NCBI GenBank assembly: GCA_017609645.1
Contig: JAFCDQ010000003.1
Location: 148,846 to 212,845 of the forward strand
Source of the DNA: Candidatus Woesearchaeota archaeon
Lineage (GTDB): Archaea > Nanobdellota > Nanobdellia > Woesearchaeales > ARS49
DNA length: 64,000 nt
Direction: 5' to 3'
In this document: one piece after another, positions 1,739 through 36,226 of the stretch
Layout of the letters: the number at the start of each line of letters is the position of its first letter
Position numbering within the stretch: position 1 is the stretch's first letter
Made by a program: the position numbers and the translations under genes
Notes under the pieces: generated by a model
Told to the model about the DNA's origin: nothing
Databases searched by the model: none
Seen by the model: only the letters and a program-made list of their open reading frames with translations

Positions 1739-2365
1739 TTAATTAGTCGCTATATTCCTAACTAATCTAACCTTTGCTACATTGCTTTTGCTTAAGAACT
1801 CTCCATCTTTTGTGTATATCTCAAAAAATGCTGTGTATTTATCTCTTGGATAATATCCAATGTATTCATCATATTTGTTTGCATACCCAAACACAACATA
1901 TCCTTCTATAAATGCAGTGGTGATTATTTGTTCGCATGTTGGAGGATCGCTTTCATATTGGTTTTGTGCGCACATTTTTATGACGAGATTTTCTACTGGA
2001 TCATATGGATATGGTCCGAATTTCCCTTCATATGTTCTTATGATATCGTCATAAAGTTGTATCTCTCCATACATCGTAGAGGGCGTGAATATTCCTTGTA
2101 CATAAAATTGAATATCATTTGGCATTAATGCTTTTTGTACTTCTGTTTGCATTGGCAGTTCATATACTCCTGGCAAAGTGCCTGCTTGTCCAACTGAGAC
2201 AATTTGTTGTGTGCCAAATAATCCTGGTATTGGCTCCCATGCTTCTATTATTTGCTGTCCTGTTCTTTTGCCTAGAAATGAGTCGCTTGTTGATGCTATA
2301 CCAAGTAAAAGAATTATGACAATTAAAGCTCCGGATGTTACACCAACTTTTTTTACTCTTTGCAT
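1739..2365 (-). CDS. Secreted or membrane-anchored hypothetical protein; last gene of the surface-protein locus
   Basis: 208 aa with an N-terminal hydrophobic segment (GALIVIILLLGIAS). It follows the giant-protein gene on the same strand. Confidence 0.5.
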   Translation of the reverse strand: MQRVKKVGVTSGALIVIILLLGIASTSDSFLGKRTGQQIIEAWEPIPGLFGTQQIVSVGQAGTLPGVYELPMQTEVQKALMPNDIQFYVQGIFTPSTMYGEIQLYDDIIRTYEGKFGPYPYDPVENLVIKMCAQNQYESDPPTCEQIITTAFIEGYVVFGYANKYDEYIGYYPRDKYTAFFEIYTKDGEFLSKSNVAKVRLVRNIATN

Positions 2366-2404
2366 TTTATCCTCCTTAAGGAATGTGTTTTTTTAAAGGT
2401 TTTG

Positions 2405-5400
2405 TTAATAATTGAATATTTCATTTACTCTGTTGTATTTTTCATTTATCATTTCCAGCAGTAATTCTTCTGTGCACACATAATCTTTGTATGCTCTGCA
2501 TTCATCTATTTTTTCTTGGTATTTGTCAAATCTTGTCAAGCCTATATTACTCGCGACTTTAAGGAAGTTTTCTTCTAATGTTAACACTCCCCAAAGATCT
2601 CCATTGTCTGCTAGATAAATCCATAATTTGTATTCTTCTGGCAGAACATTTCTCATCAATGCAAGGTCTGACTCTTCTGTGTATAAAAGATCTTTTTTCA
2701 CTTGCTGTTCTCTTTCAATTATGCTTTTGCTGATTAAATGAGCAGGAATTTTTAGAGTTTCATTTACATATTGTTCCATACGGTATTTGCCAGTTTGTTC
2801 TGGAGTGATGCTATCTAGGGCAGCAATAATATTATTTAATTGTTGTAGTTGATATCCGTGATGAATATCTGATAATTTTGCTTTGTAAGCTTTTATTTTT
2901 CCTTTTAAGTATTGGAGATTATCGGCCATATTTTGTCCTGAAACATAATCTTTTGAATTTTTCAAGATATCCAAAATAAATACTTTTGCATCATCTGCGG
3001 TTTGAGTGTATCTTTTCATCTCAGAGTTTAATGCTTTTGGAGATGGTTTTACAGCAGGTTTTATTTCTCCTTTAAACTCCAATCTTATTAATACTACACT
3101 GGTTTTTAGATTTTCTTTGACTATTATTAGATTATCCAAACAGTTCTGCTGATAATTATTCATGCATTTCCTTAATTCCATGTCAAAGGCATTCATTTGT
3201 TTTTTCCATTCATTATTCAGTTTTAAATCATTTAATGTTTGCGGCAGTTCATAATAATTTTTTTGAAGTTCTCTTAAGAATTTGATTTCTGTTTTTTGAA
3301 TTTGATTTTTTGTTGCCTGTCCTGCATTTCGTTTGATTCTTAGTTCTTTTTCAGCGTCTATATTATTGAATAAGAAATTTAGAGTGTTTTTAAAGTAAGT
3401 TATTTTGCCTACATACAGCATTGCTCTTATTTCTATTTCTGCTATTTCATTTATTGTTTTTTGTATGTTTTGCTTAACACTTTCTTCACTTGATTTCTTC
3501 AATATGTTTTTCTTTAAATCATCTATTATTTGTTTTTTTGTTGCTAAATTTTTCATGAATTTGTTTATCTCTGTTAATTGTGATGTTGTTTTAACTGATT
3601 CCAATAGTTCTGTTATTTGTTTTTCTGCCCTCGCTAATTCTGTAAAATAAGTATTTATGTGGTCTCTTGCAGTATCTGCAGGAGTGTAATATTTTCCAGT
3701 TTGTATTGCAGGCAGGACTTCTTTTAATTGCCCTCTTGCAGACTTGCTTTTTGCAATTATTGTATCAATCGCTATTTCTTTTATTTTTGCTATTGCTTCT
3801 CCTTCGCTTGCTTTTGGAGGCAATGCCACTCCCGTTAATCTCTCTGCTTCTGTGAGGACTTTTTCTTTTTCTTTTTGTGCATCTTCAATTAAATCTATGA
3901 CTCCTTTCAAATAAGCTTTGATGTCAGCATCATTTTTCTTAACTTCATTAAATCTTTGCAGTTTTCTTGTTAATATATCAAGTATTTTTGCTAAATCATC
4001 TGCTTGGAGTTTTTCAGTTTCTTTTGCTAACGCATTATATTTATCTATTAATTCTAAGAGTTTTTCTTCTACTTGTGATTCTAATGGTTCTGCTTCTCTT
4101 TCTATGTAATTTGTTATGTCTACATAGATTTTTGCCATGTCTGTTTTTTGTAAAAATACATTGATATTGTCGCTTATTACTTTTTCATCATTAATATACC
4201 CGTCTAGCGGATCTAATGCTTGTCTTATTTGGAATAATAAGTCATTTGCTGTTGCTTCTTCAATAATTTCTTTTTCAGGAATCTCGCATACAACATAGAA
4301 TTCTTTTTTCATCTCTACTGGAGAGCCTATTACAGGGTCTATGCTTTGCATTGATGTTGGATTGCCGTATTTGTCTGCATCATATGCCTGGAATATGACT
4401 GTAAATCTTTGAGGTTGATATTTTGTTTTTGCATCTGCACAGATATCTCCTGCAATTGTTTGTATTATCTTGAATTCTTTTCTTTTTCCTTTTATCTTGC
4501 CTATTTTGTCTTTTGCAGGAAGGTTTATTACGACTTCTATGTTTTTTGCTTTATCAATAAATACTATTTTTGTTTTATAATCTCCTTTGTCAAGATTTAT
4601 TCTTTCTGTGTATTCAAAACCATATGCACTATTTTTTACTTTGTCTTCTAAATCTTTTGATTCATGAATTCTATAAACAAGTTCTCCGTTTTCTTCATCA
4701 ATTACTAAAAGATATGATATGCTTGCTGCATAAGGTTGTTTTTCTTCTCTAATTATTTTGAATTCTTCAAATAATTGCAGTTCTCCTGGACGAATAAAAC
4801 TCAAGCGAATGTCAGATTGTGATAATGTGTCAGACATTTTTGCTGTTTCTTTGTCTTTGTCCCATTCTAAAATTCTCATGCCGATGGTTTTCTCTCCCAT
4901 CCATTCTTTTGTTACAAATATATTTCCTATTCCCGCATCTAATGTGCTTACTGTATAATCTCCATTAGTGTTTAGTATTGTTTTTCCAGCAAATGTTTCA
5001 CTTGCAGGATCTTTTTGTGTAACTATTCTTCCTTTTGCATCTTTTATCTGCCATGCTAAGAATTTATTGTATACTGGTTTTGGAGGACTTGGATAATCCT
5101 GGCTTATTGCAAGTTCTGCTTCAAACTTATCTTTTATAGTGAATATTGTTATTTCTTTTTTGTTTTGTTTTATTGTATGAGGTGCTTTGATTGTTAAATC
5201 TCTAAACATTACTCCTCCTTCTTGTTCTCCAAATACACATCTAAAGCTCAAGGTAAAGAGGTCAAATGCGCAAAAGTTTGGAGGATGTGTTCCTGTCTGA
5301 CCTATTGAACAAGTTACTGAATCATCTCTGAATTGTCCGTTTGGATCTGTCCAGCTCCAGGATAATTCTGCCGTGTCATATCTAACCATGCTTTGGTCGC

Positions 5401-8400
5401 CTTGTAATGGTATGAATAATTCTTTGTTTAATATATCATATTTGCTTATTGTTCCTGCTATTTCTGGCGGAGTGACTTCTAATTCTTTTTCTCCTTGCCT
5501 GCAGTCGCATTCTCCTTTAAGGAAGCCGTCTGTTTCTTTGCATTTATATCCTTGGCTGCATTTTAATTTTAATCTTAAGTTAAGATCGCTTCCTGGCGCG
5601 ATCATTATTCCAAAATGATAAAGCCATTTTGCTGATCCTTTTACAGGATAACTTGATGGATCATATCCTATGAATCTTCTTGAGCAAGGGAATATTACTG
5701 CTGAGCTGTCTATTGGTACTTCTTCTAATGACATATCAAACAGAACGTCTGGATCTAGGCTCCACGTGCCTGTAAATGCAAATGAGCACATGCTGTGCAC
5801 TAACTTCCTGTCTACAAACATTGCTTTGTATAATCCTGTTCCGCCGTATCTTTCTTCTACATCTCTGCCTACATTACTCGCTGATGTTGTTAATGCTGTT
5901 AATACATTTTCTACGCCTCCTATTTCTACTCTTTTATTTGCTTTTGGCATGCTGTATTTTTCTGAGAAACATTTTACTACATTAAATATTAAATCACACA
6001 CATATGTCTCTAGTACTGCTTGGCATACTCCTTCGCTTCCTTCTCCTGTTGTTCTTACAACATCAAAGCAGTTTTTGGATGCAGTTAGTATGTTTTTCCA
6101 TAATTTCAAATTAGCTACCATGCCTGGCAGGCAGATGCATTGTCCTGAACGCAATAGTCCACTTGATGGTCTGACAATGTATTCTTTGTCTTCTGAACCT
6201 ATTTTTGTGATTATGCTTTCATATAATTCTGTGGCTCTTGCTTTTGTTATGCATGAAGCACCTTTGCCTGCTGCAGTACATAATGCTTTTTGGAATCCTT
6301 CAATATTTTTTATTTTTCCTGTTGCGTAATATTCTTCTATTATTTCTGGTGTGAAGAATGTGTCAGCCTCTGCTGCTTCTAGTTCTATTGCTTCTAGTTT
6401 TGCATTTAAGTAATGTCTTTTTCCTTCTGCAATTATTCCTGATTGCTCGCTTTTTTGGAAGTTAAGAACTTCTACTACATATCCTAGTTTTACTGTGTAA
6501 AGGCTTGTTGATTTTGTTAAGCTCATTAGCACTTTTTGTTCTTCTGTTAATGGTATGACAAACACATAGAGCATTTGTTCTGGGCTGAATTCTGATAATC
6601 CTAATTCTTTTATTTTATCGTCACTAAACTTCACAATCTTGTATGTTTCTGGTGTTGGCCCTCCTTTTGCTTCGCAGAATCCTGCAACAGAGTTCCATAA
6701 TTTGTTGCATTCTACTTTTTCTTTGCCTACTTCAAATTTGTTTTGTCCTACTCTTTCTGAACTTAGGCATGTGCTTTCTTTTATTTCGTCAAATGTGTCT
6801 AAAAATTCTAGTTTACTTAGTCCGCATGCGCTGCCCCAGGTGTCCATGTATTCATATCCACAGCATTCTGCAGTTGCTGGATGAATTCCTGAGCAGCTCA
6901 GTCCTGTTATTTTTTCTTTTTCTCCGTCATCTTGATGTTTTAGATAGTTTCCATATATTTTTTTTACTTCGTCATTGCTAATCATTAATTTTCCTTTTAC
7001 TCCTTTTTTGTTTTGTTTTATCCATGCCGCACAGTCACTGCCTTGGTATATTTTCCCGTCAATGGCGTATTTTGCTGTTTCTGCATTTTTTGGAATATTT
7101 TTTATCTCGCTTATTCTGTTTTGCTGTCTTTTGATGTATGTTTGTAATGTTGGGGCGTCTGGACAAGCTACTCTGTCACATACTTGTTGATAGATTGATT
7201 TTACTTGATTATAAGTTTCTACTGCATCTTGGCAGGATTTACAGTTTGTTTGTGTTTCTCCTGTGTAAATTTCGCACATTCCTGATTTTGCTATGTTTGG
7301 ATTAAATCCTTTTCCTGATAGGAAACTTGCTGCTGCATTTAATTCGCAGTTTAATGTTTTTTGAACTTGAAAGACATACATTAATACATTTCCTGCTAAG
7401 CAGCCTATTGTTGCTACTTTTCCGACTGTTTCTATTGGTTTTAGTATAAAGTCTATTCCTTTTATTATATCTCCAAAACGCCTTGATAAGAATTCTAATG
7501 CTCCTGATGGTATTATGTCAGCAGGGATTAGTTTGTCTATCATCATTTCTTGTTCTATGCATATTTTTTGTACTTTATTCTCGCTTATTTCTTCTTCTAC
7601 ACTTTCTCCTGAGTATGGATCTGTTACCCATCTTTTCTTAACTTCTTGGAATGGAATCTCTAACTCGAGCATAAATCTTCCGCAGCCAAATCCTGGAACA
7701 AGGCAGTTTCCTTCTCTATGATTGCTTAATTCCATTAACCTGTCTGAGGTTAGTGCTTCTGGATCGTCTGAAAGTAAGTCTAGTGGATTAAAATTAAATT
7801 GTATATATCCTTTTACTTTTTCATTTTCATATCCTCGAACAGGTGTTGCTATTGTGTTTATGTTGACCCATCCATTATCATATTGGTTTGCAACTGCTGG
7901 GCTGAGCATCATTGCATTTGCTTTTATTGCGTTTGATCTTAGTCTTATTTTGTTTACGCCTTTGTATTCTAGTTCAAATGCAAGTCCTATTTGCTGCATT
8001 CCTTCAAACATTAATCTTGGAGTTAGTATATCAGGTATTGGTGTTGAGATTCGTGATTCAAACCACGTGCCGTAACCGCATATTGCATATTCTACTATGC
8101 TTTCTGGTGTTTCTGTCATTAATCCTACTGCATCAACAGCCTGTAATTTGATTTTGTTTGCATAACCTCCTCCTGCTTGCAGTGTTGCTCTCATTTCACT
8201 TGAGGTCATGCCTGCTCCTGTTGTTTTTAGAACAATTTGTGCTGCAAATGTTCCATCATTTTCTGTTAGAACTGTTTTTTCTGCTTTGCCGTTCAAGAAT
8301 ACTGTCACGCTTGCTTTTTCATTTAATTTTCCTCTTACTATTACTGCTTTTTTGTATGAAGGGGTTAATTCTTCGAGATTTGTTTCAATGAATTGAGGAG

Positions 8401-9253
8401 GTCCTGAGTCATACATTATTTCTTTCTTTGTGATTGTTCTAAATCCTGCTTCATCTTTTGCAGTTATGATTACTTCATTTTTTCCTTCAAATAAATCTAT
8501 TGGGATTGTAAAGTTTCCTTCAACACTTTTGTTTTTTGTTCGTGATTCATCACTATCTTCTTTATTGATTTGTATTATCAGTGTTACTGGTTCATTCACA
8601 TATCCATTAAGTTCAATTATTTTTTGGGTCGTTACATCTTCTATTTTAATTTCTAATTGAGGAGGTTTTGTGTCAACTTTGACTGTGAATTCTTTTGTTA
8701 GTTCCTGTCCTCCTATATTTATTGCAGTTATTTTCAATTTGTTTGTATCTTTTGTTAATGCTATGTTGGTTATTGTGAATAATTCTTCTTTTGTCAGGAT
8801 GTTTTTCTTTTCTATGCCATTAACAAATACTCTTATTGTTGTCTCAGGAATTGTTTTTCCTTTTATCTCGATGCTTGTGCTTTTTGCTACTTCAGGCACA
8901 TCTAAATCTAGATAGAATTCTTTTACTGTGAATGTTCCTTCTCTCAATGCACAATCAGGGGTAAGCAATTCTGTGCAGCTTAGTATTTTATAGACGTATT
9001 CTCTTTGTTCTGTATTAAATGTAAATTCATGATGTGTTTTCTTGTCTTGGTATGCTTCGCCTAAAATTTCCTTAAAAGAGCCGTATCCATATTCAAATGT
9101 TGCATTTGTTGCGATGTCTGTGTTCCAGGATACTGTTGTTGTGGTTTCTGTGTGTGTGAAAACTACATTTGTGATAAAATCAGGTTGTGCTAATACTGAT
9201 ATTGCTAGTGCTATGATAATGAGGATCATGATGTTTTTTATTTTTATTTTCAT
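2405..9253 (-). CDS. Giant secreted surface protein (2282 aa): signal peptide, FN3-like N-terminal module, Cys-rich central region, about 900-aa K/E-rich coiled-coil C-terminus
   Basis: Single uninterrupted ORF. The N-terminus MKIKIKNIMILIIIALAISVLAQP is a signal peptide, and TVSWNTDIATNATFEYGYG is an FN3-like start. The C-terminal third is heptad-like and Lys/Glu-rich. Its start overlaps the stop of the upstream pilin-like gene by 4 nt. Confidence 0.8.
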   Translation of the reverse strand: MKIKIKNIMILIIIALAISVLAQPDFITNVVFTHTETTTTVSWNTDIATNATFEYGYGSFKEILGEAYQDKKTHHEFTFNTEQREYVYKILSCTELLTPDCALREGTFTVKEFYLDLDVPEVAKSTSIEIKGKTIPETTIRVFVNGIEKKNILTKEELFTITNIALTKDTNKLKITAINIGGQELTKEFTVKVDTKPPQLEIKIEDVTTQKIIELNGYVNEPVTLIIQINKEDSDESRTKNKSVEGNFTIPIDLFEGKNEVIITAKDEAGFRTITKKEIMYDSGPPQFIETNLEELTPSYKKAVIVRGKLNEKASVTVFLNGKAEKTVLTENDGTFAAQIVLKTTGAGMTSSEMRATLQAGGGYANKIKLQAVDAVGLMTETPESIVEYAICGYGTWFESRISTPIPDILTPRLMFEGMQQIGLAFELEYKGVNKIRLRSNAIKANAMMLSPAVANQYDNGWVNINTIATPVRGYENEKVKGYIQFNFNPLDLLSDDPEALTSDRLMELSNHREGNCLVPGFGCGRFMLELEIPFQEVKKRWVTDPYSGESVEEEISENKVQKICIEQEMMIDKLIPADIIPSGALEFLSRRFGDIIKGIDFILKPIETVGKVATIGCLAGNVLMYVFQVQKTLNCELNAAASFLSGKGFNPNIAKSGMCEIYTGETQTNCKSCQDAVETYNQVKSIYQQVCDRVACPDAPTLQTYIKRQQNRISEIKNIPKNAETAKYAIDGKIYQGSDCAAWIKQNKKGVKGKLMISNDEVKKIYGNYLKHQDDGEKEKITGLSCSGIHPATAECCGYEYMDTWGSACGLSKLEFLDTFDEIKESTCLSSERVGQNKFEVGKEKVECNKLWNSVAGFCEAKGGPTPETYKIVKFSDDKIKELGLSEFSPEQMLYVFVIPLTEEQKVLMSLTKSTSLYTVKLGYVVEVLNFQKSEQSGIIAEGKRHYLNAKLEAIELEAAEADTFFTPEIIEEYYATGKIKNIEGFQKALCTAAGKGASCITKARATELYESIITKIGSEDKEYIVRPSSGLLRSGQCICLPGMVANLKLWKNILTASKNCFDVVRTTGEGSEGVCQAVLETYVCDLIFNVVKCFSEKYSMPKANKRVEIGGVENVLTALTTSASNVGRDVEERYGGTGLYKAMFVDRKLVHSMCSFAFTGTWSLDPDVLFDMSLEEVPIDSSAVIFPCSRRFIGYDPSSYPVKGSAKWLYHFGIMIAPGSDLNLRLKLKCSQGYKCKETDGFLKGECDCRQGEKELEVTPPEIAGTISKYDILNKELFIPLQGDQSMVRYDTAELSWSWTDPNGQFRDDSVTCSIGQTGTHPPNFCAFDLFTLSFRCVFGEQEGGVMFRDLTIKAPHTIKQNKKEITIFTIKDKFEAELAISQDYPSPPKPVYNKFLAWQIKDAKGRIVTQKDPASETFAGKTILNTNGDYTVSTLDAGIGNIFVTKEWMGEKTIGMRILEWDKDKETAKMSDTLSQSDIRLSFIRPGELQLFEEFKIIREEKQPYAASISYLLVIDEENGELVYRIHESKDLEDKVKNSAYGFEYTERINLDKGDYKTKIVFIDKAKNIEVVINLPAKDKIGKIKGKRKEFKIIQTIAGDICADAKTKYQPQRFTVIFQAYDADKYGNPTSMQSIDPVIGSPVEMKKEFYVVCEIPEKEIIEEATANDLLFQIRQALDPLDGYINDEKVISDNINVFLQKTDMAKIYVDITNYIEREAEPLESQVEEKLLELIDKYNALAKETEKLQADDLAKILDILTRKLQRFNEVKKNDADIKAYLKGVIDLIEDAQKEKEKVLTEAERLTGVALPPKASEGEAIAKIKEIAIDTIIAKSKSARGQLKEVLPAIQTGKYYTPADTARDHINTYFTELARAEKQITELLESVKTTSQLTEINKFMKNLATKKQIIDDLKKNILKKSSEESVKQNIQKTINEIAEIEIRAMLYVGKITYFKNTLNFLFNNIDAEKELRIKRNAGQATKNQIQKTEIKFLRELQKNYYELPQTLNDLKLNNEWKKQMNAFDMELRKCMNNYQQNCLDNLIIVKENLKTSVVLIRLEFKGEIKPAVKPSPKALNSEMKRYTQTADDAKVFILDILKNSKDYVSGQNMADNLQYLKGKIKAYKAKLSDIHHGYQLQQLNNIIAALDSITPEQTGKYRMEQYVNETLKIPAHLISKSIIEREQQVKKDLLYTEESDLALMRNVLPEEYKLWIYLADNGDLWGVLTLEENFLKVASNIGLTRFDKYQEKIDECRAYKDYVCTEELLLEMINEKYNRVNEIFNY

Positions 9254-11241: not shown

Positions 11242-11297
11242 ATTACCCCTTTTTTTACTTTTGCTGCCTTTTTTGAGCTTACTTTTATAGTCTTGCT

Positions 11298-11392
11298 AAC
11301 CGCGACAGGGGGTTGCCCCCTTCGGGGATGTCGCCACTCAAATAAACTTTGCAGTCAAGCGAATTGGCAGCAAAGTCTACCCCCTTGTTCCC
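11298..11392. other. GC-rich structured intergenic element (candidate small RNA, leader or attenuator) between the 297-aa membrane-protein gene and the 663-aa pilin-like gene
   Basis: The only strongly GC-rich island in the window. Outer stem GCGACA (11302-11307) pairs with TGTCGC (11329-11334) and encloses a GGGGG-UUG-CCCCC hairpin (11308-11320). That hairpin competes with a CCC-UUCG-GGG tetraloop hairpin (11318-11327). A second 7-bp stem ACTTTGC/GCAAAGT (11346-11352 / 11370-11376) has a 17-nt loop. I found no tRNA cloverleaf. Confidence 0.35.
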
Positions 11393-12286
11393 CTAAAGTT
11401 TAAATTTTTCAATAAATGTTTTCAAATAATTTCTCAGCCACACTACAAGAAGCGCTAACAATAATGCTTGTATGTAAAATGTTGTTGTTGGCGTTAAAGT
11501 TAATGATAATAATGAAAGTATTACTGCAATTAAAAAATAAATAAAGATAATGTAGCTTATTGGATTGAGGCATTTTGATATTAATGTCAGACTTTGTATT
11601 CCTTTTGCAAAGCTTTGTTTTATTTTGTTTGTTTTCAGCATATTGTAATGCAAAAATGTTGTCATATATATGTAAAATACAAGGAATATTGTAGGAATTA
11701 GTGATACTGCTATTTGTCCAGCGAAAGCATCTTCTTTCGGTGCAAAAATATAATATAATATTCCCCACATCAGCCACCATAATAAGTTTAATGCAAAAAA
11801 CTTAAGCAATTTTTTCTTGTTGAATTTTTGTTTAAGTAGTTTTAGCCAAACAAAATATTTCAATATTGAGTATATTATTAAAAGCAAAAGCAAAAATACT
11901 GCGAATATTAATATGATGTAAACGATTGTTTGCTGTGCTAATGCTAGATTTTGTTGTATTGCTTCAAATGTTTGTTCTGTCAATTGTGTTGAAGCGATTT
12001 TTTCAGCGACTTTAGAAACTAATTTTAGCGCCCCTTGTAATAAAAAGAAGAATATTACCAAATAGGCTATATCTAAAACAAATATTGTGAAGATTGTTTT
12101 GTTGAATTTAAATGATTTCAGGAATGTTTGGAACTTTTTCTTGTCTGTTTTTGTTGGAATAAGCAGGACTAATCCTGCTAGCGCAAGTATGATAAAAAGA
12201 TTTTGTTTAACAAATATTGTCAATCCTATTCCTGCTAAAATACTTATGATCCCTATTACTTTTTGTGTTATGTTTTTTATTTTCAT
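11393..12286 (-). CDS. Polytopic integral membrane protein, hypothetical (about 8 predicted TM segments)
   Basis: 297 aa, almost entirely hydrophobic helices. It lacks prepilin-peptidase and archaeosortase motifs. Its start overlaps the upstream gene's stop by 4 nt. Confidence 0.6.
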   Translation of the reverse strand: MKIKNITQKVIGIISILAGIGLTIFVKQNLFIILALAGLVLLIPTKTDKKKFQTFLKSFKFNKTIFTIFVLDIAYLVIFFFLLQGALKLVSKVAEKIASTQLTEQTFEAIQQNLALAQQTIVYIILIFAVFLLLLLIIYSILKYFVWLKLLKQKFNKKKLLKFFALNLLWWLMWGILYYIFAPKEDAFAGQIAVSLIPTIFLVFYIYMTTFLHYNMLKTNKIKQSFAKGIQSLTLISKCLNPISYIIFIYFLIAVILSLLSLTLTPTTTFYIQALLLALLVVWLRNYLKTFIEKFKL

Positions 12287-14811: not shown

Positions 14812-17800
14812 ATTCTGGTTCTCCTCCGTTTTCTCCAGACGCTGTTGTTTTATCATATTCTTCTGCCCATTCTTCCATTTCACCGCACCATTCATTTGTT
14901 ACCATTCCCATTTCATTTTGTCTGTTTGTCATTGCAGCAATACTTGCCCATGCTTCTCCTACTTCTGCAGCTACCCTATACAATGAGCATGCTGTATGAA
15001 TTTGTGCTGGTTTTGTTTCACAAGTCAAGTCACACCAGGTTCCAAAGAATGTTGTAACTATTGTCCATGGATTTGCTAGCATCTCACCTAGCATTTGACT
15101 GATTCCTTCAAAGAATTGTGAGAATGGTATTATGTCAAATAAGGGTCCGCCCCATACATATGCGCAGTTCATGTAATGATTTGTATCTTTGCAATAACTT
15201 ATTGGAACTCCTGTTTCTTTCCAGTCTTTTTCTAAGCAGGTTGCATATTTGCATTCTATTTGTGCTATTTTATTGATGTTTCTGATAATTCCTGGCAAAC
15301 AAAGACATGCCGTGCTTAAGTAAATATTATCTTTTATATTTGTATACATTCTCATGTTTCTTTCGCCTTCTCCGAGATTTCGCATGTTTCCTTGCATCAT
15401 TGCCCAGCCTGCTGTTAAGCTGCCACCTTGATCCATTATCCAGTCTTCAAATGCAGTGCACCATGGAGCTCCTCCTCCAACTAGATTTTCAATTCCCCAT
15501 TGGTCTTTTCCTCCGCTTGACTGACAATTTACTACAGCGCAGGCTTTGTCTAAGATTGTGTATAATGGAACTCCTAGTAATTTTTCTTCTTCAGGTATTA
15601 CTATTTTTTTGAATGAGGATTGTTTTCCTCCATATGCTCCGTCTATTTTTTCTTCTATTTCACATATTGGAGCTCTTGTGAGATAGATTGATTGGGATAT
15701 TGCAGGTCCAAAGACAGGAATGGCGCTTGTTGAGTCTTCCACGTTTCCTATTACTGCAACTAGTGCTGCTCCTGTTGATATTATGCTTGTTATGATTCCT
15801 TTCCATTCACATACTTCTTCTGCTATGTTAACTATTTCATTCATTGTTTCTAAAAGATCTGATTTAAGCACTCTTGCAGTATCCACAGCTTCTTTGATTG
15901 TTTTTTCTCTTCGTTCATAAATATCTCCAAGAGGCAAATCATAAAATTCTAAAAGAATGTCTACATCTTCTTCTTGAGGTGTTGTGTATATTGTTTGTTC
16001 TCTTTTTGAGTAGATTGTTAATGGACATGATAAGCTTAAATTATCTAGATAATAATCTCTTGCAGGAAGTTGTATCATAAAGTAGGGATTTGTGCTTCCT
16101 GGTGCTGTGTTTATTGTGCTTATATCGTCAATAAAGTTTGTTGTATTTCCAATACAATCATTTATTGATGTAGGTCCGATGATGCTTACTGTTTCTGCGC
16201 TTGAGCTTGTGCTTAAATCAACTTCACATACTACTCTTTGAGGTAGTTGTGATGTTGTTTTTCTGTCTATTGGCTGCGGCCTGCATGTTACATCACTTGT
16301 CCAGTATTTTCTTGCAGTGTCAACATCAAGTTCATATATTGTCATGTTGTATTCTGTTTCTGTTGTGTCATCAAATATGTCTGTGAATATGAAATTTATT
16401 GTTGCTTCTGCTGGTCCGCTTATGTCAACTACACTTTCAAACAAACATTCATCTAATCCTGTTATGCTGCTTAAGCTGCATTCAACAGCGTCTGAATCAC
16501 TTTCACCGCCTATTGCACTAAAGTCAGCAAAAGCATTTTCAAAGTTTTTGCTTTCTACAACAAATTGGACTGTGTCTCCTCTAACTGCTTCTCCTCCTAC
16601 ACCTTCTGGTCCTGGAATTACTATATAGTCTATTACTTTTGGTTTTAATGGTCCTTCGCTTTGATAAAATATTTCAAATTCTTGTCCAGAGTCTATTTTG
16701 TTTCCTAAATCATCTTGCGTGTCTGAGGATAATTCAAAATCATATATTCCTGAATTTGTTGTTAAGAAATTTGGATGTATGTTCCATTTGCAGTCCCATT
16801 TGTCAGCTGCAGTATTCTCGCACAAATCTGCTTGTAATTTTTTATCTGCAGATCTTCCTGTTAGATCATAAATGTTAAGATATGCTTTTCCTAGGTTCAT
16901 TCCTACTCCTGGATCACCGTCAGTATCTTTTTCTGAGAATATAATTGTGAAATAAGAATTATAAGCTGCTATTGGGTTTCCGTCTCCATCTACTGGCCCT
17001 TTTCCAATCTGAACAACAACAGGTGATTTATCATCTGCTTCTATATCAAAATCAAGTGTTCCTTGGCCTTGATTTCCTATGTTGTCTGTTGCTCTTACAA
17101 GTATTGTTCCAGAACTTTCTTCATCAACTTCCAGACCAGTCCAGTAATAAAAATTAGGAATTTGTTTATTTGAATAAGGAACTAATTGCACATTGTCATT
17201 AAATGGAGTTAGTTTTGCTTTTACTGTTGCATCTTCTATTCCGCTTAAATCAGTGATTTCTGCTCTGACACTTACTTGCTCGCTTCTTCCTGGCAGGACA
17301 TGTGTTATTTGTGCTCCTTCTGCATTTGTTAATGCTACTTCTATTGTTGGAGCTCCTTCATCTATGTAAAAATCATCACAAGCAGTATCTTCTCCGTCTA
17401 AGAAATCTCTAACAGTTGCGCATGCTCTTAGTTCATTTTCATCTCCATCATATATATAATCAAATCCTTCTGTTATTTCGCATTCTCCGGCCTCGCCTGT
17501 TATTGTTCCTACTTCTTCCATGTTAACATAGAATATGATTTCTTTTATTCCTGAGCATTCTGCTGATGCAGTTGTTGTGCCGTAATCTTTTGCCGTTACA
17601 GCAAAATTTACAGGGCCTGTTGTCATTTCTGGTTCTACATTAAAGCTTATTATTTCTGGGTCTGTATCATCTATGATTATTGTTTCTTCTAATGTTTCTC
17701 TTAAGATTGTATCTTGGTCATGAAGTGTTACTTTAAAGTCTATTTTTTCTTGTCCAATAAGATCTAATTCATCAGTATACGTGCAGGTGTAATAATCATC

Positions 17801-18055
17801 TGTTCCTTTTTGGCAAGTATCAAATGGCGCAAACACATTGCCTATCCAGAAGTTGACTCTTGATGGAAGTATGTTTTCATTTAACAGCATTGCTTTTGCT
17901 TTTATTGTCAAGGTATCTTTTGATCTTGCAAAGCCGTTTGCTTCATCTTCTCCGCTGTATCTGACCAGCTGCAAGTCAGATGTTTCTGCAATTGATATTG
18001 GAAGCAGAACTATCAGGATGATCATCATTATTGATATTTGTTTTTTTGAGTTCAT
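14798..18055 (-). CDS. Giant secreted protein (1085 aa) with acidic DxDxDG-like calcium-binding-type motifs and a Cys-rich C-terminal domain
   Basis: Signal peptide MNSKKQISIMMIILIVLLPISIAETS. Motifs DTDGDPGVG, PVDGDGNPI and DDTDPE are present. Its start overlaps the stop of the 711-aa pilin-like gene by 4 nt. Confidence 0.75.
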   Translation of the reverse strand: MNSKKQISIMMIILIVLLPISIAETSDLQLVRYSGEDEANGFARSKDTLTIKAKAMLLNENILPSRVNFWIGNVFAPFDTCQKGTDDYYTCTYTDELDLIGQEKIDFKVTLHDQDTILRETLEETIIIDDTDPEIISFNVEPEMTTGPVNFAVTAKDYGTTTASAECSGIKEIIFYVNMEEVGTITGEAGECEITEGFDYIYDGDENELRACATVRDFLDGEDTACDDFYIDEGAPTIEVALTNAEGAQITHVLPGRSEQVSVRAEITDLSGIEDATVKAKLTPFNDNVQLVPYSNKQIPNFYYWTGLEVDEESSGTILVRATDNIGNQGQGTLDFDIEADDKSPVVVQIGKGPVDGDGNPIAAYNSYFTIIFSEKDTDGDPGVGMNLGKAYLNIYDLTGRSADKKLQADLCENTAADKWDCKWNIHPNFLTTNSGIYDFELSSDTQDDLGNKIDSGQEFEIFYQSEGPLKPKVIDYIVIPGPEGVGGEAVRGDTVQFVVESKNFENAFADFSAIGGESDSDAVECSLSSITGLDECLFESVVDISGPAEATINFIFTDIFDDTTETEYNMTIYELDVDTARKYWTSDVTCRPQPIDRKTTSQLPQRVVCEVDLSTSSSAETVSIIGPTSINDCIGNTTNFIDDISTINTAPGSTNPYFMIQLPARDYYLDNLSLSCPLTIYSKREQTIYTTPQEEDVDILLEFYDLPLGDIYERREKTIKEAVDTARVLKSDLLETMNEIVNIAEEVCEWKGIITSIISTGAALVAVIGNVEDSTSAIPVFGPAISQSIYLTRAPICEIEEKIDGAYGGKQSSFKKIVIPEEEKLLGVPLYTILDKACAVVNCQSSGGKDQWGIENLVGGGAPWCTAFEDWIMDQGGSLTAGWAMMQGNMRNLGEGERNMRMYTNIKDNIYLSTACLCLPGIIRNINKIAQIECKYATCLEKDWKETGVPISYCKDTNHYMNCAYVWGGPLFDIIPFSQFFEGISQMLGEMLANPWTIVTTFFGTWCDLTCETKPAQIHTACSLYRVAAEVGEAWASIAAMTNRQNEMGMVTNEWCGEMEEWAEEYDKTTASGENGGEPEYEPF

Positions 18056-20187
18056 CTTAATACTGGTTTTAATAATGGCGCTTTAGCGATTGATTCATCT
18101 TTTATTTTGGTTATTTGGTCTAAATCTTCTATAAATCTTTGATCTTGAGGTACTTTGTCTATTGCAAGTGAAAAATATGTAAGCAGTAATTCTTCAGAAT
18201 CATATAGTTTATCAGGTGTGACTGTGAAGTCTATCTCCATCATAGTTGTTGGAAATGGATTTTCTGCATTAAATATCATGTCTTCTGGAGGTAGGTCATA
18301 CGATCTTCGTTTAGTTATAGGAATAAGTCCAAATATTTTTTCTGGTTCTATATATCTTGTGTCTTTTGGTATTACTATGTTTTTTGTTAAAAAGCCTGTT
18401 ATGGTGATTTTGTAGTTTCCTGGGATTAATGTTATTGTGTTTTCTTTTCCTCCTGATAAATCTGTTATTGCTGCAAAATCATCTTCAAACTGGCCTGGTT
18501 CTTTTGTAATCATAACCATCAATTCTTCTTCTTTATCTACTGGATGAAACTCGGTTGTATCTAGTTTCCATTTTCTTACTCCTTCTTTTTCATACAAATA
18601 TTTTCTGGCATTTACTTTGAGTTCTTTTTCTGGATACATTGTTATTGCAAGTTTTCCTTCTTTATCTCCTGTTGTTAATGGAGCATATATTGTCATGTAT
18701 CCTTGTCTTTTGATTTCTAATAATCCGTTCAAGCATCTTGGGAATTTAGAATTAAATATTCCTTGTGCTGTTGTTCCTAGCGCACATGCTGTGTCTCCAC
18801 AAGTGTAGATTATTGATGCATCATCTATGAATTCTTTTGTTGCATAATCTTTCAACTCGATATTTATTTCTCCGCTTGTTCTTTGGTTTGCTTTGCAGAA
18901 TAGGTTAGAGTCAAGATTTTTTAATGCTGCTGCCAGTTTTGTGTTTGATGTGAATGGATTATTATTTCTTAGGTTTGCTTCTAAGAAGAATTTAAAGCTG
19001 TATCCTTTGCCGCCTAGTGCATTTGGATTTGTTATCTCAACTAATACAGGTATGCTTATGTCATATGCAAAATTGTATTTTTGTATTCCAAATATGAAGA
19101 AGCTTTCTGATAATAATGAATTGTCAGGCCTGCATAATTCTCCGTCACAGTTTAAGTCTATGTAGGGTTTCCACCAGTCAAGATAATAAAATCTGACTTC
19201 TAAATCAGGATGAGGCGTGTCCATTGGTATTAAGAACTGTCTGTTGTACATTAGTTCATATGCTTCTGCATCTCTCACACCAGGTGGAGAAGGAACATAG
19301 TTGAAGTTTCTTGTTCCGCTTAATTGTAATAATGGAATATAGCTTGTGAGCATTTGAGTGATTTTCTTTTGTACTTTACTTTTTAACCAAAAGGTTTCTT
19401 TGCCTGTTTCAAATGTCATGTCAGATACAGGAGGCAGTGCATTTTTGTCAAGCTCAGAGAATGAATAAACCAGTTCTTTTATTGCATTTTCCAAGAAGGT
19501 GTATTCTATTTCTATGTTTGTTATGTCTGTTGCTAAATCATATATTTCTTTTAGGTTTACATTCACTGTTGCTGCAAAGTTAGCTAAGTCTTGTGTTGTT
19601 TTGTCTTTTGTTGCTTCTAACTCCCAATCTAATGAAATTAGAATGTCATTATCGCGGATGATTAATTCCACGTCAGGTCTTGATTTTTCTTCAACAACAT
19701 AGCCTTGTTCTCTTAATCCTGCAAAATTGTTGACGCATGCTGCAATGTTTTCTTCTACATAATCTGTTAATTGTTCTTCTATGTTTATTTTTCTTCCTGA
19801 GTATAGTTCAGGTCTTTTTGTTTCAAATGCACATTTGTCCTGGCATTTGTTTGGACTTTGCATATACCACCAATATGGTGATACAGGACCTTTCCCTCCT
19901 AATGATACTGCATCTGCTTCTGTTGGCGCATAAGGATTTTGTGCATAGTCAGGCAGGATATATCCTCCTTGCGAGCCTAATAAGTCAAGTCCATCTATTG
20001 TTGTTTTCTTGATGCAGAGCAGCACATAACTTGTTACAGGATCTGCTTCTGCGATTGGCACTACAGGAGTTATTGCTTTTCTTTCTATTGGTTTTTCCGC
20101 AACCTGAACAAAATAGATGACTAAAGCTATTGTGATTAATAGAATTATTCCTATTATAATGAACAATGTTACTTGTCCTTTTCTCAT
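18052..20187 (-). CDS. Large (711 aa) protein with a class III (type IV prepilin-like) signal peptide; paralog of 9250..11241
   Basis: N-terminus MRKGQVTLFIIIGIILLITIALVIYFV. A Shine-Dalgarno-like AGAGGAAAC precedes the ATG. It shares the N-terminal domain with the 663-aa paralog. Confidence 0.7.
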   Translation of the reverse strand: MRKGQVTLFIIIGIILLITIALVIYFVQVAEKPIERKAITPVVPIAEADPVTSYVLLCIKKTTIDGLDLLGSQGGYILPDYAQNPYAPTEADAVSLGGKGPVSPYWWYMQSPNKCQDKCAFETKRPELYSGRKINIEEQLTDYVEENIAACVNNFAGLREQGYVVEEKSRPDVELIIRDNDILISLDWELEATKDKTTQDLANFAATVNVNLKEIYDLATDITNIEIEYTFLENAIKELVYSFSELDKNALPPVSDMTFETGKETFWLKSKVQKKITQMLTSYIPLLQLSGTRNFNYVPSPPGVRDAEAYELMYNRQFLIPMDTPHPDLEVRFYYLDWWKPYIDLNCDGELCRPDNSLLSESFFIFGIQKYNFAYDISIPVLVEITNPNALGGKGYSFKFFLEANLRNNNPFTSNTKLAAALKNLDSNLFCKANQRTSGEINIELKDYATKEFIDDASIIYTCGDTACALGTTAQGIFNSKFPRCLNGLLEIKRQGYMTIYAPLTTGDKEGKLAITMYPEKELKVNARKYLYEKEGVRKWKLDTTEFHPVDKEEELMVMITKEPGQFEDDFAAITDLSGGKENTITLIPGNYKITITGFLTKNIVIPKDTRYIEPEKIFGLIPITKRRSYDLPPEDMIFNAENPFPTTMMEIDFTVTPDKLYDSEELLLTYFSLAIDKVPQDQRFIEDLDQITKIKDESIAKAPLLKPVLR

Positions 20188-20207
20188 ATAGTTTCCTCTT
20201 TTTTTAG

Positions 20208-21122
20208 TCAGCTGACTTTCAACGTTATCGGAATTTTTGTCAGTTTTCCTAAATCAGATGCTATCACAGTTATGATTTTATCTCCTGTGACTCCTGCTTT
20301 TGGTATGATTATCATTTGATTTCTTTCAACTCTTATGTCTATGCCATCCTCTGTGGTGGATAAAAATACTAATTCATCACCTTCTGGATCTTTGAATTGT
20401 TTTGAAAGGTCTATTATTGTTTTTCCTTTAACTGCAAAGTCTTTTGATTCTCCTATCCATTCTGGAGGCTGGTTCTCTGTTCTTTCGATATGGTAAATTA
20501 ATTCATTTACTTCTAGCCTTCCATTTATTACTTCAACAAATAATTTAGCTACAACTCCTTCAAAATCATTTAATGTACAAGTGTCTAAGCATGATTTTGT
20601 GAATTTTCCTTCATCATCTAATGCAACTTGTTCAGTATCAAACACCAAGACTAATTGCTCTTTATGTTCTAAGAATACTTTTGCTGATTCTCCTTCAAAT
20701 TTTCCAGATATAGCAAAGGATAATGGTACTTGTTTCAACATACCTGTTGAGACTGTTGTGTTTTCAAATACTAAAGTTACTGGTTGTGATATTTCATCTT
20801 GAAATGTTGTTAATCCTACAATCCCTGGATTTAATGCAACAATTATGCTAAAGACTATTATCAGCACTCCTGCGACTATGATGTTTAATGGCATTTTGGT
20901 CGTGCCTTTTTGCACTTCTTTTATTCTGTTGAATACTTTTGTTATTTGATCATATGCTAGTTCTCTTTGAAATTCATCCATGTTTGTTTTCATTAATTTA
21001 GAATAAATATCTAGAAGCAGGTAATATTGTTTTCTGGCAGAGTCTACTCTGCTTGCATCCAAGTGTTGCTGGGCTTTATAGTAGCTTTCTACGAAATCTT
21101 TGACTAGTTGACTTTGTTCCAT
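20208..21122 (-). CDS. Single-pass (type II) membrane protein, hypothetical: about 75-aa cytoplasmic N-terminal domain plus an extracellular beta-rich domain
   Basis: 304 aa with one hydrophobic segment (LNIIVAGVLIIVFSIIVAL) after a charged N-terminal region. First gene of the locus on the minus strand. Confidence 0.55.
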   Translation of the reverse strand: MEQSQLVKDFVESYYKAQQHLDASRVDSARKQYYLLLDIYSKLMKTNMDEFQRELAYDQITKVFNRIKEVQKGTTKMPLNIIVAGVLIIVFSIIVALNPGIVGLTTFQDEISQPVTLVFENTTVSTGMLKQVPLSFAISGKFEGESAKVFLEHKEQLVLVFDTEQVALDDEGKFTKSCLDTCTLNDFEGVVAKLFVEVINGRLEVNELIYHIERTENQPPEWIGESKDFAVKGKTIIDLSKQFKDPEGDELVFLSTTEDGIDIRVERNQMIIIPKAGVTGDKIITVIASDLGKLTKIPITLKVS

Positions 21123-21223: not shown

Positions 21224-21781
21224 TTATTTTTTAGTTTCTTCAGAAGGTTTTTCTTCTTTTTTTTCAGCTTCTTTAGGTTTTTCTGCAGGTTTCTCTGCTT
21301 TCTTAGGTTCTTCTTTAGGTTTTTCTTCCTTAGGTGCTTCTTTTTTTGGCTCTTCTTTTACTGTTTCTTTAGGTTTTTCTGCTGGTTTCTCTGCTTTCTT
21401 AGGCTCTTCTTTCTTTTCTTCAATCAATTTTTCTTTGCCTTCTTTTAAGATTTTTAAGTTGATTTGAGAAATTTTAGCATGAACTGCGTTTCCACAGACT
21501 GTTTTTCTTACTTTTATTCCTTTTCCTTTCTTTTTCAAGCCTACGCCTTGTACTGCAAATATTCTTTTTCTGATTGGCCCGTCAATATCTTTTCGCATTG
21601 GAAATCCACAGGAATCACTGCCTCCTGTTATTTCAAATTCATACCCTGCAAATCCGATTGTCTCCCCTGCTATCTTTTCACCTATTTTTTTACCTATAAA
21701 GCTTGAGGATTCATCTTCTGATAGTTCTTTTTGCAGGCATTTGCCTTTTTTTGTGCCAATTACGATTTTAAATGCAGTCAT
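21224..21781 (-). CDS. rps6e: 30S ribosomal protein S6e with a 65-aa Lys/Glu/Pro-rich C-terminal repeat tail
   Basis: MTAFKIVIGTKKGKCLQ...ITGGSDSCGFPMRKDIDGP matches the archaeal S6e N-terminus and core. The tail contains EEPKKAEKPAEKPKE twice. Confidence 0.85.
   Translation of the reverse strand: MTAFKIVIGTKKGKCLQKELSEDESSSFIGKKIGEKIAGETIGFAGYEFEITGGSDSCGFPMRKDIDGPIRKRIFAVQGVGLKKKGKGIKVRKTVCGNAVHAKISQINLKILKEGKEKLIEEKKEEPKKAEKPAEKPKETVKEEPKKEAPKEEKPKEEPKKAEKPAEKPKEAEKKEEKPSEETKK
21271..21412 (-). repeat. Direct repeat of 96 nt (two 46-nt copies, 2 mismatches) encoding the duplicated EEPKKAEKPAEKPKE block in the S6e tail
   Basis: CTTTAGGTTTTTCTGC[A/T]GGTTTCTCTGCTTTCTTAGG[T/C]TCTTCTTT occurs at 21271-21316 and 21367-21412. 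Confidence 0.6.
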
Positions 21782-21805
21782 GATTTAAGTTAAAATTAGC
21801 TGTTG

Positions 21806-21824
21806 ATTTAAAAAGGTTTTGGTA
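21806..21824 (-). promoter_or_regulatory. Candidate BRE/TATA promoter of rps6e (leaderless): ATTTAAAAAGGTTTTGGTA, identical to the 19-mer upstream of rpl21e
   Basis: In the minus sense it reads TACCAAAACCTTTTTAAAT, followed by 24 nt and then the ATG. The same 19-mer occurs at 61413-61431, 25 nt upstream of the rpl21e ATG. Confidence 0.4.
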
Positions 21825-21833
21825 ATAGAAGAG

Positions 21834-22178
21834 TTATGATATGAGCTTTAATTTTCCTGTTACTTTGTCTATTTCTTTTTCTTTGTCAGGACCTATTGCT
21901 AAACAAGTTACTGTTCCTGGTTCTAAATGAGTTTTGCCAGCATCGATTATTAATGCTGTTTTTAATTTTAATTGACCTGCTTTTTTCTTGTATTCCATCA
22001 ATTCTGTTTTGTCTTTGACTTTAAGGATTGATTTTTTCATTCCTTCTTTTTGCCAGCTGTCAATTTTTGTTTTAGAACTCTTTAATACAGCATCAACACT
22101 TGCATGGCTGCATTGTGCTGCCATTTTTCCTTTTGACAATTTTAAGTCAGTTCGCACTAGTATTACTTGTTTGTACAT
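21834..22178 (-). CDS. pth2: Peptidyl-tRNA hydrolase, archaeal/eukaryotic PTH2 type
   Basis: VILVRTDLKLSKGKMAAQCSHASV is the PTH2 signature; 114 aa. Confidence 0.85.
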   Translation of the reverse strand: MYKQVILVRTDLKLSKGKMAAQCSHASVDAVLKSSKTKIDSWQKEGMKKSILKVKDKTELMEYKKKAGQLKLKTALIIDAGKTHLEPGTVTCLAIGPDKEKEIDKVTGKLKLIS

Positions 22179-22198
22179 TGTAATATAAAAAAAAGAAA

Positions 22199-22675
22199 TT
22201 AATTAGGGAATATATCCCTATTTCTTGTTGGAATACAGACTCTATCTGCAGAGTCATACCAATCTAAAGTCTGATGCCCAATATCTGCTAGATAACAAAG
22301 CACATCTGAGTTTATTCTTCCTTGATATAATGGAAGATTATATTGTCTTAGCGTTTGTCCTCTTTGTGCTTTATCTTCTACAACATAACATTTTATTTGA
22401 TCTTGCGGAATTATTTGTTTATCAGACCTTCTATTCCCCCATATAGTTCTACATTGAGGAATATGTTCTACTCCGCCTCCTATAATAATGTAATGAGCTT
22501 GATCATATGACATTCCGCCTGTTTCTCCGACATAGGGTTTGTTATATGTCATGCCCGCATACCATGATTCTCCTGTTGTACTTGCTCTTGTAAATAGCAA
22601 GACTAATCCTATAATGGCTATGATTGTTATAACACCTAAAATAACTAATCCTAATCCTACTTGACCTTTTTTCAT
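22199..22675 (-). CDS. Small (158 aa) pilin-like protein with a class III signal peptide
   Basis: MKKGQVGLGLVILGVITIIAIIGLVLLF. A perfect Shine-Dalgarno GGAGGT (22682-22687 on +) lies 6 nt upstream of the ATG. Confidence 0.65.
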   Translation of the reverse strand: MKKGQVGLGLVILGVITIIAIIGLVLLFTRASTTGESWYAGMTYNKPYVGETGGMSYDQAHYIIIGGGVEHIPQCRTIWGNRRSDKQIIPQDQIKCYVVEDKAQRGQTLRQYNLPLYQGRINSDVLCYLADIGHQTLDWYDSADRVCIPTRNRDIFPN

Positions 22676-36203: not shown

Positions 36204-36226
36204 AGAATTACTTTTCTTAGACTAAT

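Follow-up and report, generated by a model that had tools for sequence, protein, structure and literature searches.

A widely conserved seven-gene cassette of class-III-like signal proteins and giant secreted proteins in Woesearchaeota: a candidate surface system

In the Sulfolobus bindosome, sugar-binding proteins that carry class III (type IV prepilin) signals are processed by PibD and assembled by Bas. The EppA substrates of methanogens have glycine at position -1 and glutamine at +1, and the SPEARE proteins are giant surface proteins of Nanohaloarchaeota. Immunoglobulin-like (Ig-like) and CnaB/transthyretin-like folds are typical of adhesins, pilins and the stalks of surface layers (S-layers). 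Few DPANN archaea are as widespread as Woesearchaeota, the group considered here. The methanogen EppA system has been described (PMC3875500, PMC4390842), the bindosome is mentioned in a paper that also deals with archaeal type IV pilus (T4P) loci encoding large DUF2341 PilY-like proteins (PMC4858521), and giant proteins of nanohaloarchaea have been discussed (PMC10266531). DPANN genomes are generally small (PMC8204110, PMC11329633), and their symbiosis-related proteins belong largely to hypothetical families (PMC8204110); according to Castelle et al. 2021 (PMC8204110), DPANN-specific hypothetical families that are possibly symbiosis-related set lineages apart. In the literature searched, no cultured Woesearchaeota and no identified envelope or host-contact proteins of this group were found. 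Here we describe a cassette of seven genes in a 64-kb stretch of DNA from a Candidatus Woesearchaeota archaeon (contig JAFCDQ010000003.1, positions 148,846 to 212,845); the whole stretch is called the window, and coordinates are given in it. This cassette is a real system, conserved widely and not described before, that would display large surface proteins by means of class III signals.

The conserved unit occupies 2405-21122 on the minus strand, about 19 kb, and consists of g304, g711, g1085, g842, g297, g663 and g2282. It is part of a run of eleven co-directional minus-strand genes (1739-22675) that emerged from open reading frame (ORF) listing and translation. A preliminary description drawn from the sequence had seen this run, which the listing bears out, but had counted ten genes in it. 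Stop and start codons overlap as ATGA at g711/g1085 (18052-18055), g842/g297 (12283-12286) and g663/g2282 (9250-9253), and g1085 and g842 overlap by 14 nt (14798-14811). The 4- and 14-nt overlaps that had been taken to pack the run are found at four of its ten junctions; the remaining gaps measure 20-151 nt. All seven cassette products have export or membrane signals as judged from hydropathy, in the form of Sec-type signal peptides, class-III-like N-termini or transmembrane (TM) segments.

The first cassette gene, g304 (20208-21122, 304 aa), encodes a type II membrane protein in which about 78 aa of cytoplasmic helical sequence precede a TM segment at 79-97 and an extracellular beta-rich domain (hydropathy); neither Pfam nor NCBIfam gave a match. 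It is followed by g711 (18052-20187, 711 aa), which encodes class-III-signal protein A, and by g1085 (14798-18055, 1085 aa), the secreted partner A, with a Sec signal peptide and 29 cysteines, many of them invariant. The C-terminal region of g1085 is helical and Cys-rich and bears a CLCLPG motif; its N-terminal region would be Ig-like, to judge from homology to g2282. The secreted protein g842 (12283-14811, 842 aa) begins with a signal peptide and a variable stretch and has a conserved domain at its C-terminus, and its composition and heptad pattern suggest that residues ~330-570 are helical or a coiled coil. Its ORF extends to 870 aa from the first ATG, and the N-termini of orthologues favour the start at 14811 that yields 842 aa. 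These orthologues measure 446-938 aa and lie in every case between g1085 and g297. The polytopic membrane protein g297 (11393-12286, 297 aa) has about eight TM segments. Its sequence is poorly conserved, with a few invariant G, W, P and R residues and no obvious catalytic residue, and it is also present in the divergent variants of the cassette (related loci L052, L054 and L033). Class-III-signal protein B, g663 (9250-11241, 663 aa), precedes the giant secreted partner B, g2282 (2405-9253, 2282 aa, 44 Cys). In g2282 a Sec signal peptide is followed by Ig-like domains at ~aa 100-380, a conserved core at ~aa 380-1400 (370-1420), further beta domains and a C-terminal region (~aa 1680-2282) of low conservation and helical or coiled-coil appearance. 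The Ig-like assignment includes borderline Pfam matches to Big_13 and Glucodextran_B at residues 207-279. In the core, 33 cysteines are kept in at least 10 of 12 aligned sequences and 28 in all 12. The secretion of the 2282- and 1085-aa proteins and the presence of a polytopic and a type II membrane protein had been proposed earlier, and the signal peptides and hydropathy profiles agree with both proposals. N-x-S/T sequons are scarce in g2282, g663, g842, g1085 and g711 (9 observed, ~32 expected from shuffles), which suggests that N-glycosylation of secreted proteins is selected against in the source organism. Sequons are likewise depleted in three Peripla_BP_6 solute-binding proteins encoded at 42479-49002 (1 observed, 7 expected), and cytoplasmic enzymes show no depletion.

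The class-III-signal proteins start with a short basic leader, Gly at position -1 and a hydrophobic stretch of about 20 residues. The sequence is MRKG followed by QVTLFIIIGIILLITIALVIYF in g711 and MRKG followed by QLTIFIILGLILIITIGMVLYF in g663; g158, which lies outside the cassette, combines the same elements in MKKG followed by QVGLGLVILGV. A pattern scan of the 64 kb left these as the sole genuine class-III-like N-termini, and the class III signals that had been noted on the 663-, 711- and 158-aa proteins were seen again as a basic leader, a G-Q pair and ~20 hydrophobic residues. In the g711 family (112 aligned homologues with an overall identity of only ~35%) residues 1-25 are the best conserved, at 2.88 bits per column versus a mean of 2.18, and the linker at residues 26-45 is the least conserved (1.55 bits). 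Conservation amounts to ~70-80% for K2/K3, 81% for G4, 98% for Q5, 92% for T7, 94% for F9, 90% for I11, 91% for G13 and 84% for Y25, and the resulting motif is [KR][KR]G-Q-I-T-x-F-I-I-I-G. The orthologues of g663 follow the same pattern, with Q5, G13 and Y25 each at 100%. Such conservation of G4, Q5, T7, F9 and G13, with G at -1 and Q at +1 as in the EppA substrates, would be expected of prepilin-peptidase substrates rather than of plain signal anchors. At E <=0.1, g711, g663 and g158 did not match Class_IIIsignal/DUF361 (PF04021), Pilin_N (PF07790) or the TIGRFAM archaeal flagellin N-terminal model. This negative result is uninformative because small pilin-like proteins of related loci, an example of which starts with RRGQAALEFLMTYGW, escape the same curated models too.

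Sequence comparison identifies g711 and g663 as clear paralogs (BLASTP 24% identity, E 2e-22; hhalign probability 100%, E 2.9e-79). The secreted partners g1085 and g2282 have their N-terminal ~330-380 residues in common, comprising the signal peptide and the Ig-like arrays (hhalign probability 93.7%), as well as a ~60-residue motif, S-x-x-C-[IL]-C-L-P-G...C...C (hhalign probability 74.5%, E 2.7e-5). The paralogy of the former and the common regions of the latter argue for a real duplication of a two-gene module, pilin-like protein plus giant, into two pairs only, g711/g1085 and g663/g2282. No homology was detected by hhalign among g842, g297 and g304, nor between these and the other cassette families. 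The preliminary description had proposed a duplicated module as well, and this stands for the two pairs (hhalign 100%, 93.7% and 74.5%) but not for a third one: the 158-aa class-III protein was thought to directly precede the ~840-aa giant, but g842 is preceded by g1085 and g158 precedes pth2. Searches of Pfam, NCBIfam and PHROGs with all cassette proteins gave no confident match, and the borderline Ig-like ones were confined to g2282. PHROGs returned merely a generic match of g2282 (aa 129-335, in the N-terminal beta-domain region) to a family of unknown function. Profile searches of the PDB with the g711, g1085 and g297 families yielded nothing credible, the one sub-threshold match being a designed protein. 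No known enzymatic or transport domain was found in the cassette with the domain libraries. Neither these libraries nor the papers searched held an annotation or description of its proteins, in keeping with the earlier suggestion that the locus is undescribed.

The g711/g663 profile retrieves more than 120 proteins at E <=1e-75, none of which has a functional name or a Pfam domain; where a source name is given it reads 'hypothetical' or 'uncharacterised'. The named sources are nearly all metagenome-assembled genomes of Woesearchaeota or Nanoarchaeia, and one is labelled Aenigmarchaeota. A HMMER search of 1.84 billion cluster representatives (50% identity) with the g711 profile gave 9061 matches at E <=1e-3, 6476 at E 1e-10 and 1779 at E 1e-30. 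In a scan of GTDB species representatives the family was found in 52 loci, and gene order was compared by BLASTP of the window proteins against the ORFs of these related loci. Gene g1085 comes next after g711 in 37 of the 40 loci that have at least 3.3 kb downstream, and 20 of the 31 with at least 8.5 kb downstream contain the full run g711-g1085-g842-g297-g663-g2282. The other 11 of these 31 have mostly partial runs, which likely result from divergence or from longer genes that shift the later ones beyond the end of the locus. In most loci g304 lies directly 5' of g711. Gene calls of L001, L002, L056 and L057 show an identical cassette string without annotated domains (precomputed Pfam), and in L056 and L057, where the downstream genes differ, g2282 is the final cassette gene. 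In L054 the order is g1085-like, x, g711-like, g297-like, x, g663-like, g2282-like. The recurrence of cassette parts in shuffled order in L052 and L054 argues for functional coupling beyond mere inherited gene order. Most related loci are single-copy; L029, L049 and L052 have extra g711-like or g1085-like copies. The preliminary description had regarded the genes as a functional unit, a view that the gene order kept across dozens of species endorses; a scattering of the giants in relatives would have spoken against it, and they are syntenic with the pilin-like genes. From the overlapping junctions and the conserved order we read the cassette as one operon. As a separate observation, the pilin-like/giant pair is extra or reordered in some of L029, L049, L052, L054 and L055, and some of these loci also encode short, ~340-aa class-III proteins whose similarity to the g711/g663 profile is confined to its N-terminal part. 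The pilin-like/giant module appears to be evolving.

The AlphaFold2 model of g711, built from the 112-sequence alignment, has a mean predicted local distance difference test score (pLDDT) of 90.1 and a predicted template modelling score of 0.73. It consists of a helix at 2-30, a low-confidence Pro-rich linker at 31-45, an alpha/beta domain at ~46-420, beta-sandwich domains at ~440-675 and a C-terminal helix. The sandwiches are tandem CnaB/transthyretin-like domains, and the structure matches (6fwv at E 3.7e-8, BcpA, SpaA) are limited to them; the alpha/beta domain had no structural match in the structure search. In view of the export signals and these folds a surface or attachment role is plausible, as had been suggested before. 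We tentatively favour the view that the cassette encodes a multi-subunit surface complex of Woesearchaeal cells which depends on class III signals and is probably an adhesin; its processing, assembly into a complex and role in adhesion or host contact are what we infer. In such a complex, g711 and g663 would be cut after Gly4 by a prepilin peptidase encoded elsewhere. Their hydrophobic helix (QITxFIIIG...Y) could then either be held in the membrane or, as a tip or minor-pilin-like subunit, be lifted by type-IV-filament machinery. The Pro-rich linker and the CnaB-like stalk domains would project the alpha/beta head, and this head would hold the cognate giant. The giants, probably stabilised by disulfides, would turn their Ig-like arrays outward and, as adhesins or contact structures, face a partner cell or surface, with g297 and g304 as the membrane base.

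Several results weigh against this interpretation. Pfam models for T2SSE, T2SSF and Peptidase_A24 found nothing in 30 ORFs at 24.7-57.9 kb of the window; the scan did not extend to the short ORFs before 1739 or to the seven at 57.9-64 kb that reach 120 aa or more. In the ORFs scanned the earlier remark that the window has no assembly ATPase, platform protein or prepilin peptidase holds. When 141 flanking ORFs from related loci were scanned against Pfam in one batch, two matched T2SSF, both in L052, and T2SSE and Peptidase_A24 were not among the families listed for these ORFs. The g711 model has no pilin head: its helix runs into the flexible linker, and ~650 aa of other domains follow. In the absence of such a head, incorporation of g711 in the body of a filament is unlikely according to the model, and the part of the earlier attachment proposal that cast the 663- and 711-aa proteins as possible filament subunits is not supported. 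The model of the g2282 core is moderate (pLDDT 68.5) and had no informative structural match in the PDB; it shows a beta-hairpin with 22-residue strands and a 64-residue helix. Complex formation, cleavage and adhesion are, moreover, deduced from sequences and models.

The variant locus L052 bears on the question of filament machinery. Two T2SSF genes and a DUF361-like pilin (MKRRGQAALEFLMTYGW) lie at 42-2402, directly 5' of a variant cassette (2555-19102) and on the same strand. This cassette comprises a g1085-like gene (hidden Markov model (HMM) E 2e-192), a gene for a 502-aa protein, a g711-like gene (E 1.5e-141), a gene for a 270-aa protein, a g297-like gene, a short g663-like gene, a gene for a 1464-aa protein and a second g1085-like gene. 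The pilin has an R-G-Q start and the g158 family a K-G-Q start. The contig ends just 5' of the first T2SSF gene, before any ATPase could show. L052 provides the only physical link to filament machinery, in one of ~52 loci, and neither T2SSE nor T2SSF was found in L001, L002, L056 and L057. The linkage of T2SSF and pilin genes to the cassette points to filament machinery as a partner system. Between dependence on machinery encoded elsewhere and a machine-free use of class III signals, the gene content of L052 leans towards dependence. Four downstream ORFs of L033 were considered as type-IV-filament genes and rejected, three being radical-SAM proteins and the fourth having no Pfam match.

A bolder version of the adhesin complex, which we consider rather less probable, is that the prepilin-type N-terminus has been co-opted without filaments. 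The cassette would then be a previously unrecognised surface machine of Woesearchaeota and related Nanoarchaeia that mounts two giant, disulfide-rich proteins with unmatched folds, and would act as an organelle for partner-cell contact and perhaps for the exchange of material. It is also conceivable, though unlikely, that the MRKGQ N-termini are ordinary uncleaved signal anchors, that surface assembly proceeds independently of a peptidase or filament machinery, and that the resemblance to class III signals is convergent. This would fit the missing match to pilin and class-III HMMs, the lack of type-IV-filament genes in the scanned parts of the window and in related flanks apart from the two T2SSF genes of L052, and the g711 model, in which helix and flexible linker lead into non-pilin domains. 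Convergence does not readily account for residues G4, Q5, T7, F9 and G13 that are kept at 81-98% in 112 sequences of ~35% identity, nor for the K-G-Q and R-G-Q starts of the g158 family and the L052 DUF361-like pilin, and the L052 cassette is physically linked to two T2SSF genes and that pilin.

The cassette might instead have a structural role in the cell envelope. In an S-layer or scaffold, g711 and g663 would serve as SlaB-like stalks, g1085, g2282 and g842 as a SlaA-like canopy, and the N-termini only as anchors. The translationally coupled pairs of anchor and large secreted protein resemble slaA/slaB, the cassette is widespread and mostly single-copy in related loci, and the housekeeping genes rpS6e, pth2 and thrS adjoin it in a subset of them. 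No DPANN S-layer structure has been solved (PMC11329633). A Woesearchaeal S-layer protein was not found in the literature, so that the S-layer role is as yet assigned to no other protein. Archaeal S-layer glycoproteins are usually sequon-rich, whereas sequons are depleted here (9 versus 32 expected), and S-layer proteins do not typically have invariant cysteines by the dozen. The anchor is moreover N-terminal with a G-Q motif, as opposed to the C-terminal TM segment and coiled coil of SlaB, and seven components including an 8-TM protein compare with one or two in known S-layers (PMC5744192). On balance we regard an S-layer as improbable. Least probable would be a contact-dependent apparatus that breaches or fuses with the host for cytoplasmic bridging or uptake, with the giant Cys-rich proteins as membrane-active agents. 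DPANN archaea are known or predicted symbionts and form bridges with hosts (PMC11329633, PMC11291902), and the hairpin and 64-residue helix of the g2282 core, which lack a structural match in the PDB, could be taken as membrane-active elements, together with a hydrophobic, Gly/Ala-rich internal segment of g1085 (754-772). However, with a pLDDT of only 68.5 the modelled hairpin and long helix could be artefactual, the g1085 segment is not strongly conserved in the family consensus, the cassette contains no ATPase or energy source, and no likeness to known fusogens, pore formers or secretion systems was found.

Other origins and functions were considered and rejected. A viral or mobile origin was dismissed since PHROGs matches were generic only, the GC content of the cassette (0.34-0.36) is close to that elsewhere in the window (0.28-0.35) and a subset of species share the chromosomal neighbourhood. 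Solute binding, as in a bindosome, was dropped for lack of a solute-binding fold and of an ABC transporter in the cassette, and multihaem electron transfer because a reading of the cassette protein sequences revealed no CxxCH motif.

The remaining genes of the eleven-gene run lie on either side of the cassette. Upstream are rpS6e (21224-21781, minus strand, 185 aa; Pfam 3.8e-30), pth2 (21834-22178, minus strand, 114 aa; NCBIfam 2.5e-44) and g158 (22199-22675, minus strand, 158 aa), with its MKKGQ start and hydrophobic stretch. The order thrS-g158-pth2-rpS6e is found upstream of the cassette in L001, L005, L006, L008, L009, L012, L014, L037 and L048 and is missing near the cassettes of L002, L020, L024 and others. 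Because this adjacency is restricted to a subset, thrS, g158, pth2 and rpS6e are neighbours and not components of the cassette. The preliminary description had placed rpS6e and pth2 inside the locus and had drawn from them an argument for constitutive expression; both genes are present, but synteny puts them outside the conserved unit, and with that no inference on constitutive expression can be drawn from them. The g158 family has an almost invariant N-terminus, K[KR]GQxGIxLVILGVxAIIAxIGLVLLFTRAS, and at least nine species have its gene flanked by thrS and pth2 (for example L001 5305-6066, L006 1822-2586 and L009 392-1135). Its orthologues measure ~230-290 aa, which makes the 158-aa window copy short, and g158 may be a true pilin. 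The rpS6e protein has a repetitive, Lys/Glu/Pro-rich C-terminal extension of ~65 aa in which KKAEKPAEKPKE occurs twice; at 185 aa it is longer than many orthologues (129-134 aa), and long forms also occur in L004 and L005. At the other end, 3' of the giant, g208 (1739-2365, minus strand) encodes a small secreted or anchored protein of 208 aa. Only L056 and L057 include DNA past the giant gene, and a single weak homologue was found, ~3 kb 3' of the giant in L056 (BLASTP 31% identity, E 6e-13). Its membership of the cassette is doubtful.

Between the stop of g297 (11393) and the start of g663 (11241), the only large gap within the cassette is occupied by a ~110-nt GC-rich element (11262-11372; ~50% GC versus a background of ~31%). 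On the plus strand it folds into a cloverleaf-like three-arm structure with a 7-bp closing stem (minimum free energy -40.1, z -1.95). No Rfam or ARAGORN match was obtained for it, and it is missing from all related loci, in which the gap is mostly -4 to +13 nt. A small RNA or an unusual tRNA-like gene might be encoded here on the opposite strand. Further short islands with a GC content of at least 50% at ~31101-31210 and ~63201-63300 might be unrecognised RNA genes in a window with ~31% GC; in the whole 64 kb ARAGORN detected no tRNA and no Rfam family reached the gathering score. The window also encodes threonyl- and glutamyl-tRNA synthetases and a Ser/Thr kinase with tetratricopeptide repeats. 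At 35039-49002, six Peripla_BP_6 paralogs are interleaved with tandem helix-turn-helix (HTH) regulators (AsnC/MarR-like, HTH_10, TrmB) around one Liv-type ABC transporter, an uptake locus that is unusually expanded for a DPANN genome. Genes for de novo purine synthesis at 50-57 kb adjoin it. A 536-aa ORF at 24692-26302 (minus strand) has a lipoprotein-like N-terminus (…LTGCSN) and ~35-aa internal repeats (…KAKVPVDYA…) without a Pfam match, and its C-terminal SGHG…DSCS motifs recall caspase or CHAT-like peptidases.

The cassette offers a concrete, strongly conserved seven-gene candidate for host contact that can be used as a marker and traced in metatranscriptomes, metaproteomes and cryo-electron tomography. 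With DPANN genomes being generally small, its ~19 kb takes up a considerable part of the coding capacity. At least six new protein families without relatives in Pfam, PDB or PHROGs come with it, and one of these has more than 9,000 cluster representatives (50% identity). It also shows clearly, outside the Sulfolobus bindosome, that very large proteins without a pilin fold can carry class III signals.

The described systems resemble the cassette in different respects. The bacterial T4P tip complex (FimU-PilVWXE with PilY1/PilC) likewise has prepilin-type genes directly adjacent to one that encodes a large, Sec-exported protein other than a pilin, which their products presumably display, and there too the assembly ATPase and peptidase are possibly encoded elsewhere. 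In contrast, g711 and g663 measure ~700 aa and have no pilin head fold, and Pfam and NCBIfam detected neither the beta-propeller of the PilY1/PilC adhesins (Neisseria_PilC) nor a vWA or DUF2341 domain in g1085, g842 and g2282. The cassette further differs from the tip complex in its duplicated module, its additional 8-TM, type II membrane and possible coiled-coil proteins and the absence of a major pilin. The modular pilins PilB and PilC of Streptococcus sanguinis (PMC8179133, PMC9934059) also carry a class III signal on a bulky module, which makes their filament adhesive. They possess a complete pilin module of alpha1 and beta-sheet, whereas g711 has only the N-terminal helix before its linker, and its extra domains are an unmatched alpha/beta domain and CnaB/transthyretin-like sandwiches. 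Sortase-assembled CnaB pilins differ in that g711 has no C-terminal LPXTG or TM segment and the locus no sortase. The SlaA/SlaB S-layers of Sulfolobales pair the genes of a membrane-anchored beta-sandwich stalk and a large secreted outer protein in a similar way, but the anchor of the cassette is N-terminal and class-III-like, its components number seven versus two, and its proteins are sequon-poor and Cys-rich. Like the giants of the cassette, SPEARE proteins are very large secreted proteins of small-genome archaeal symbionts with a presumed role in host contact. The cassette giants have no protease, restriction-endonuclease or laminin-type domains and no detectable similarity to them, and belong to a fixed multi-gene set with pilin-like partners. 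In the bindosome, non-filament proteins of more than 500 aa are displayed by way of a class III signal and hydrophobic helix, as proposed here, but the cassette contains neither a solute-binding fold nor an ABC transporter, its partners are giant Cys-rich proteins, and it occurs in another phylum with unrelated sequences. In its way of working, the cassette would come closest to the minor-pilin/PilY1 tip complex, to modular pilins or to the bindosome, yet it lacks defining features of each.

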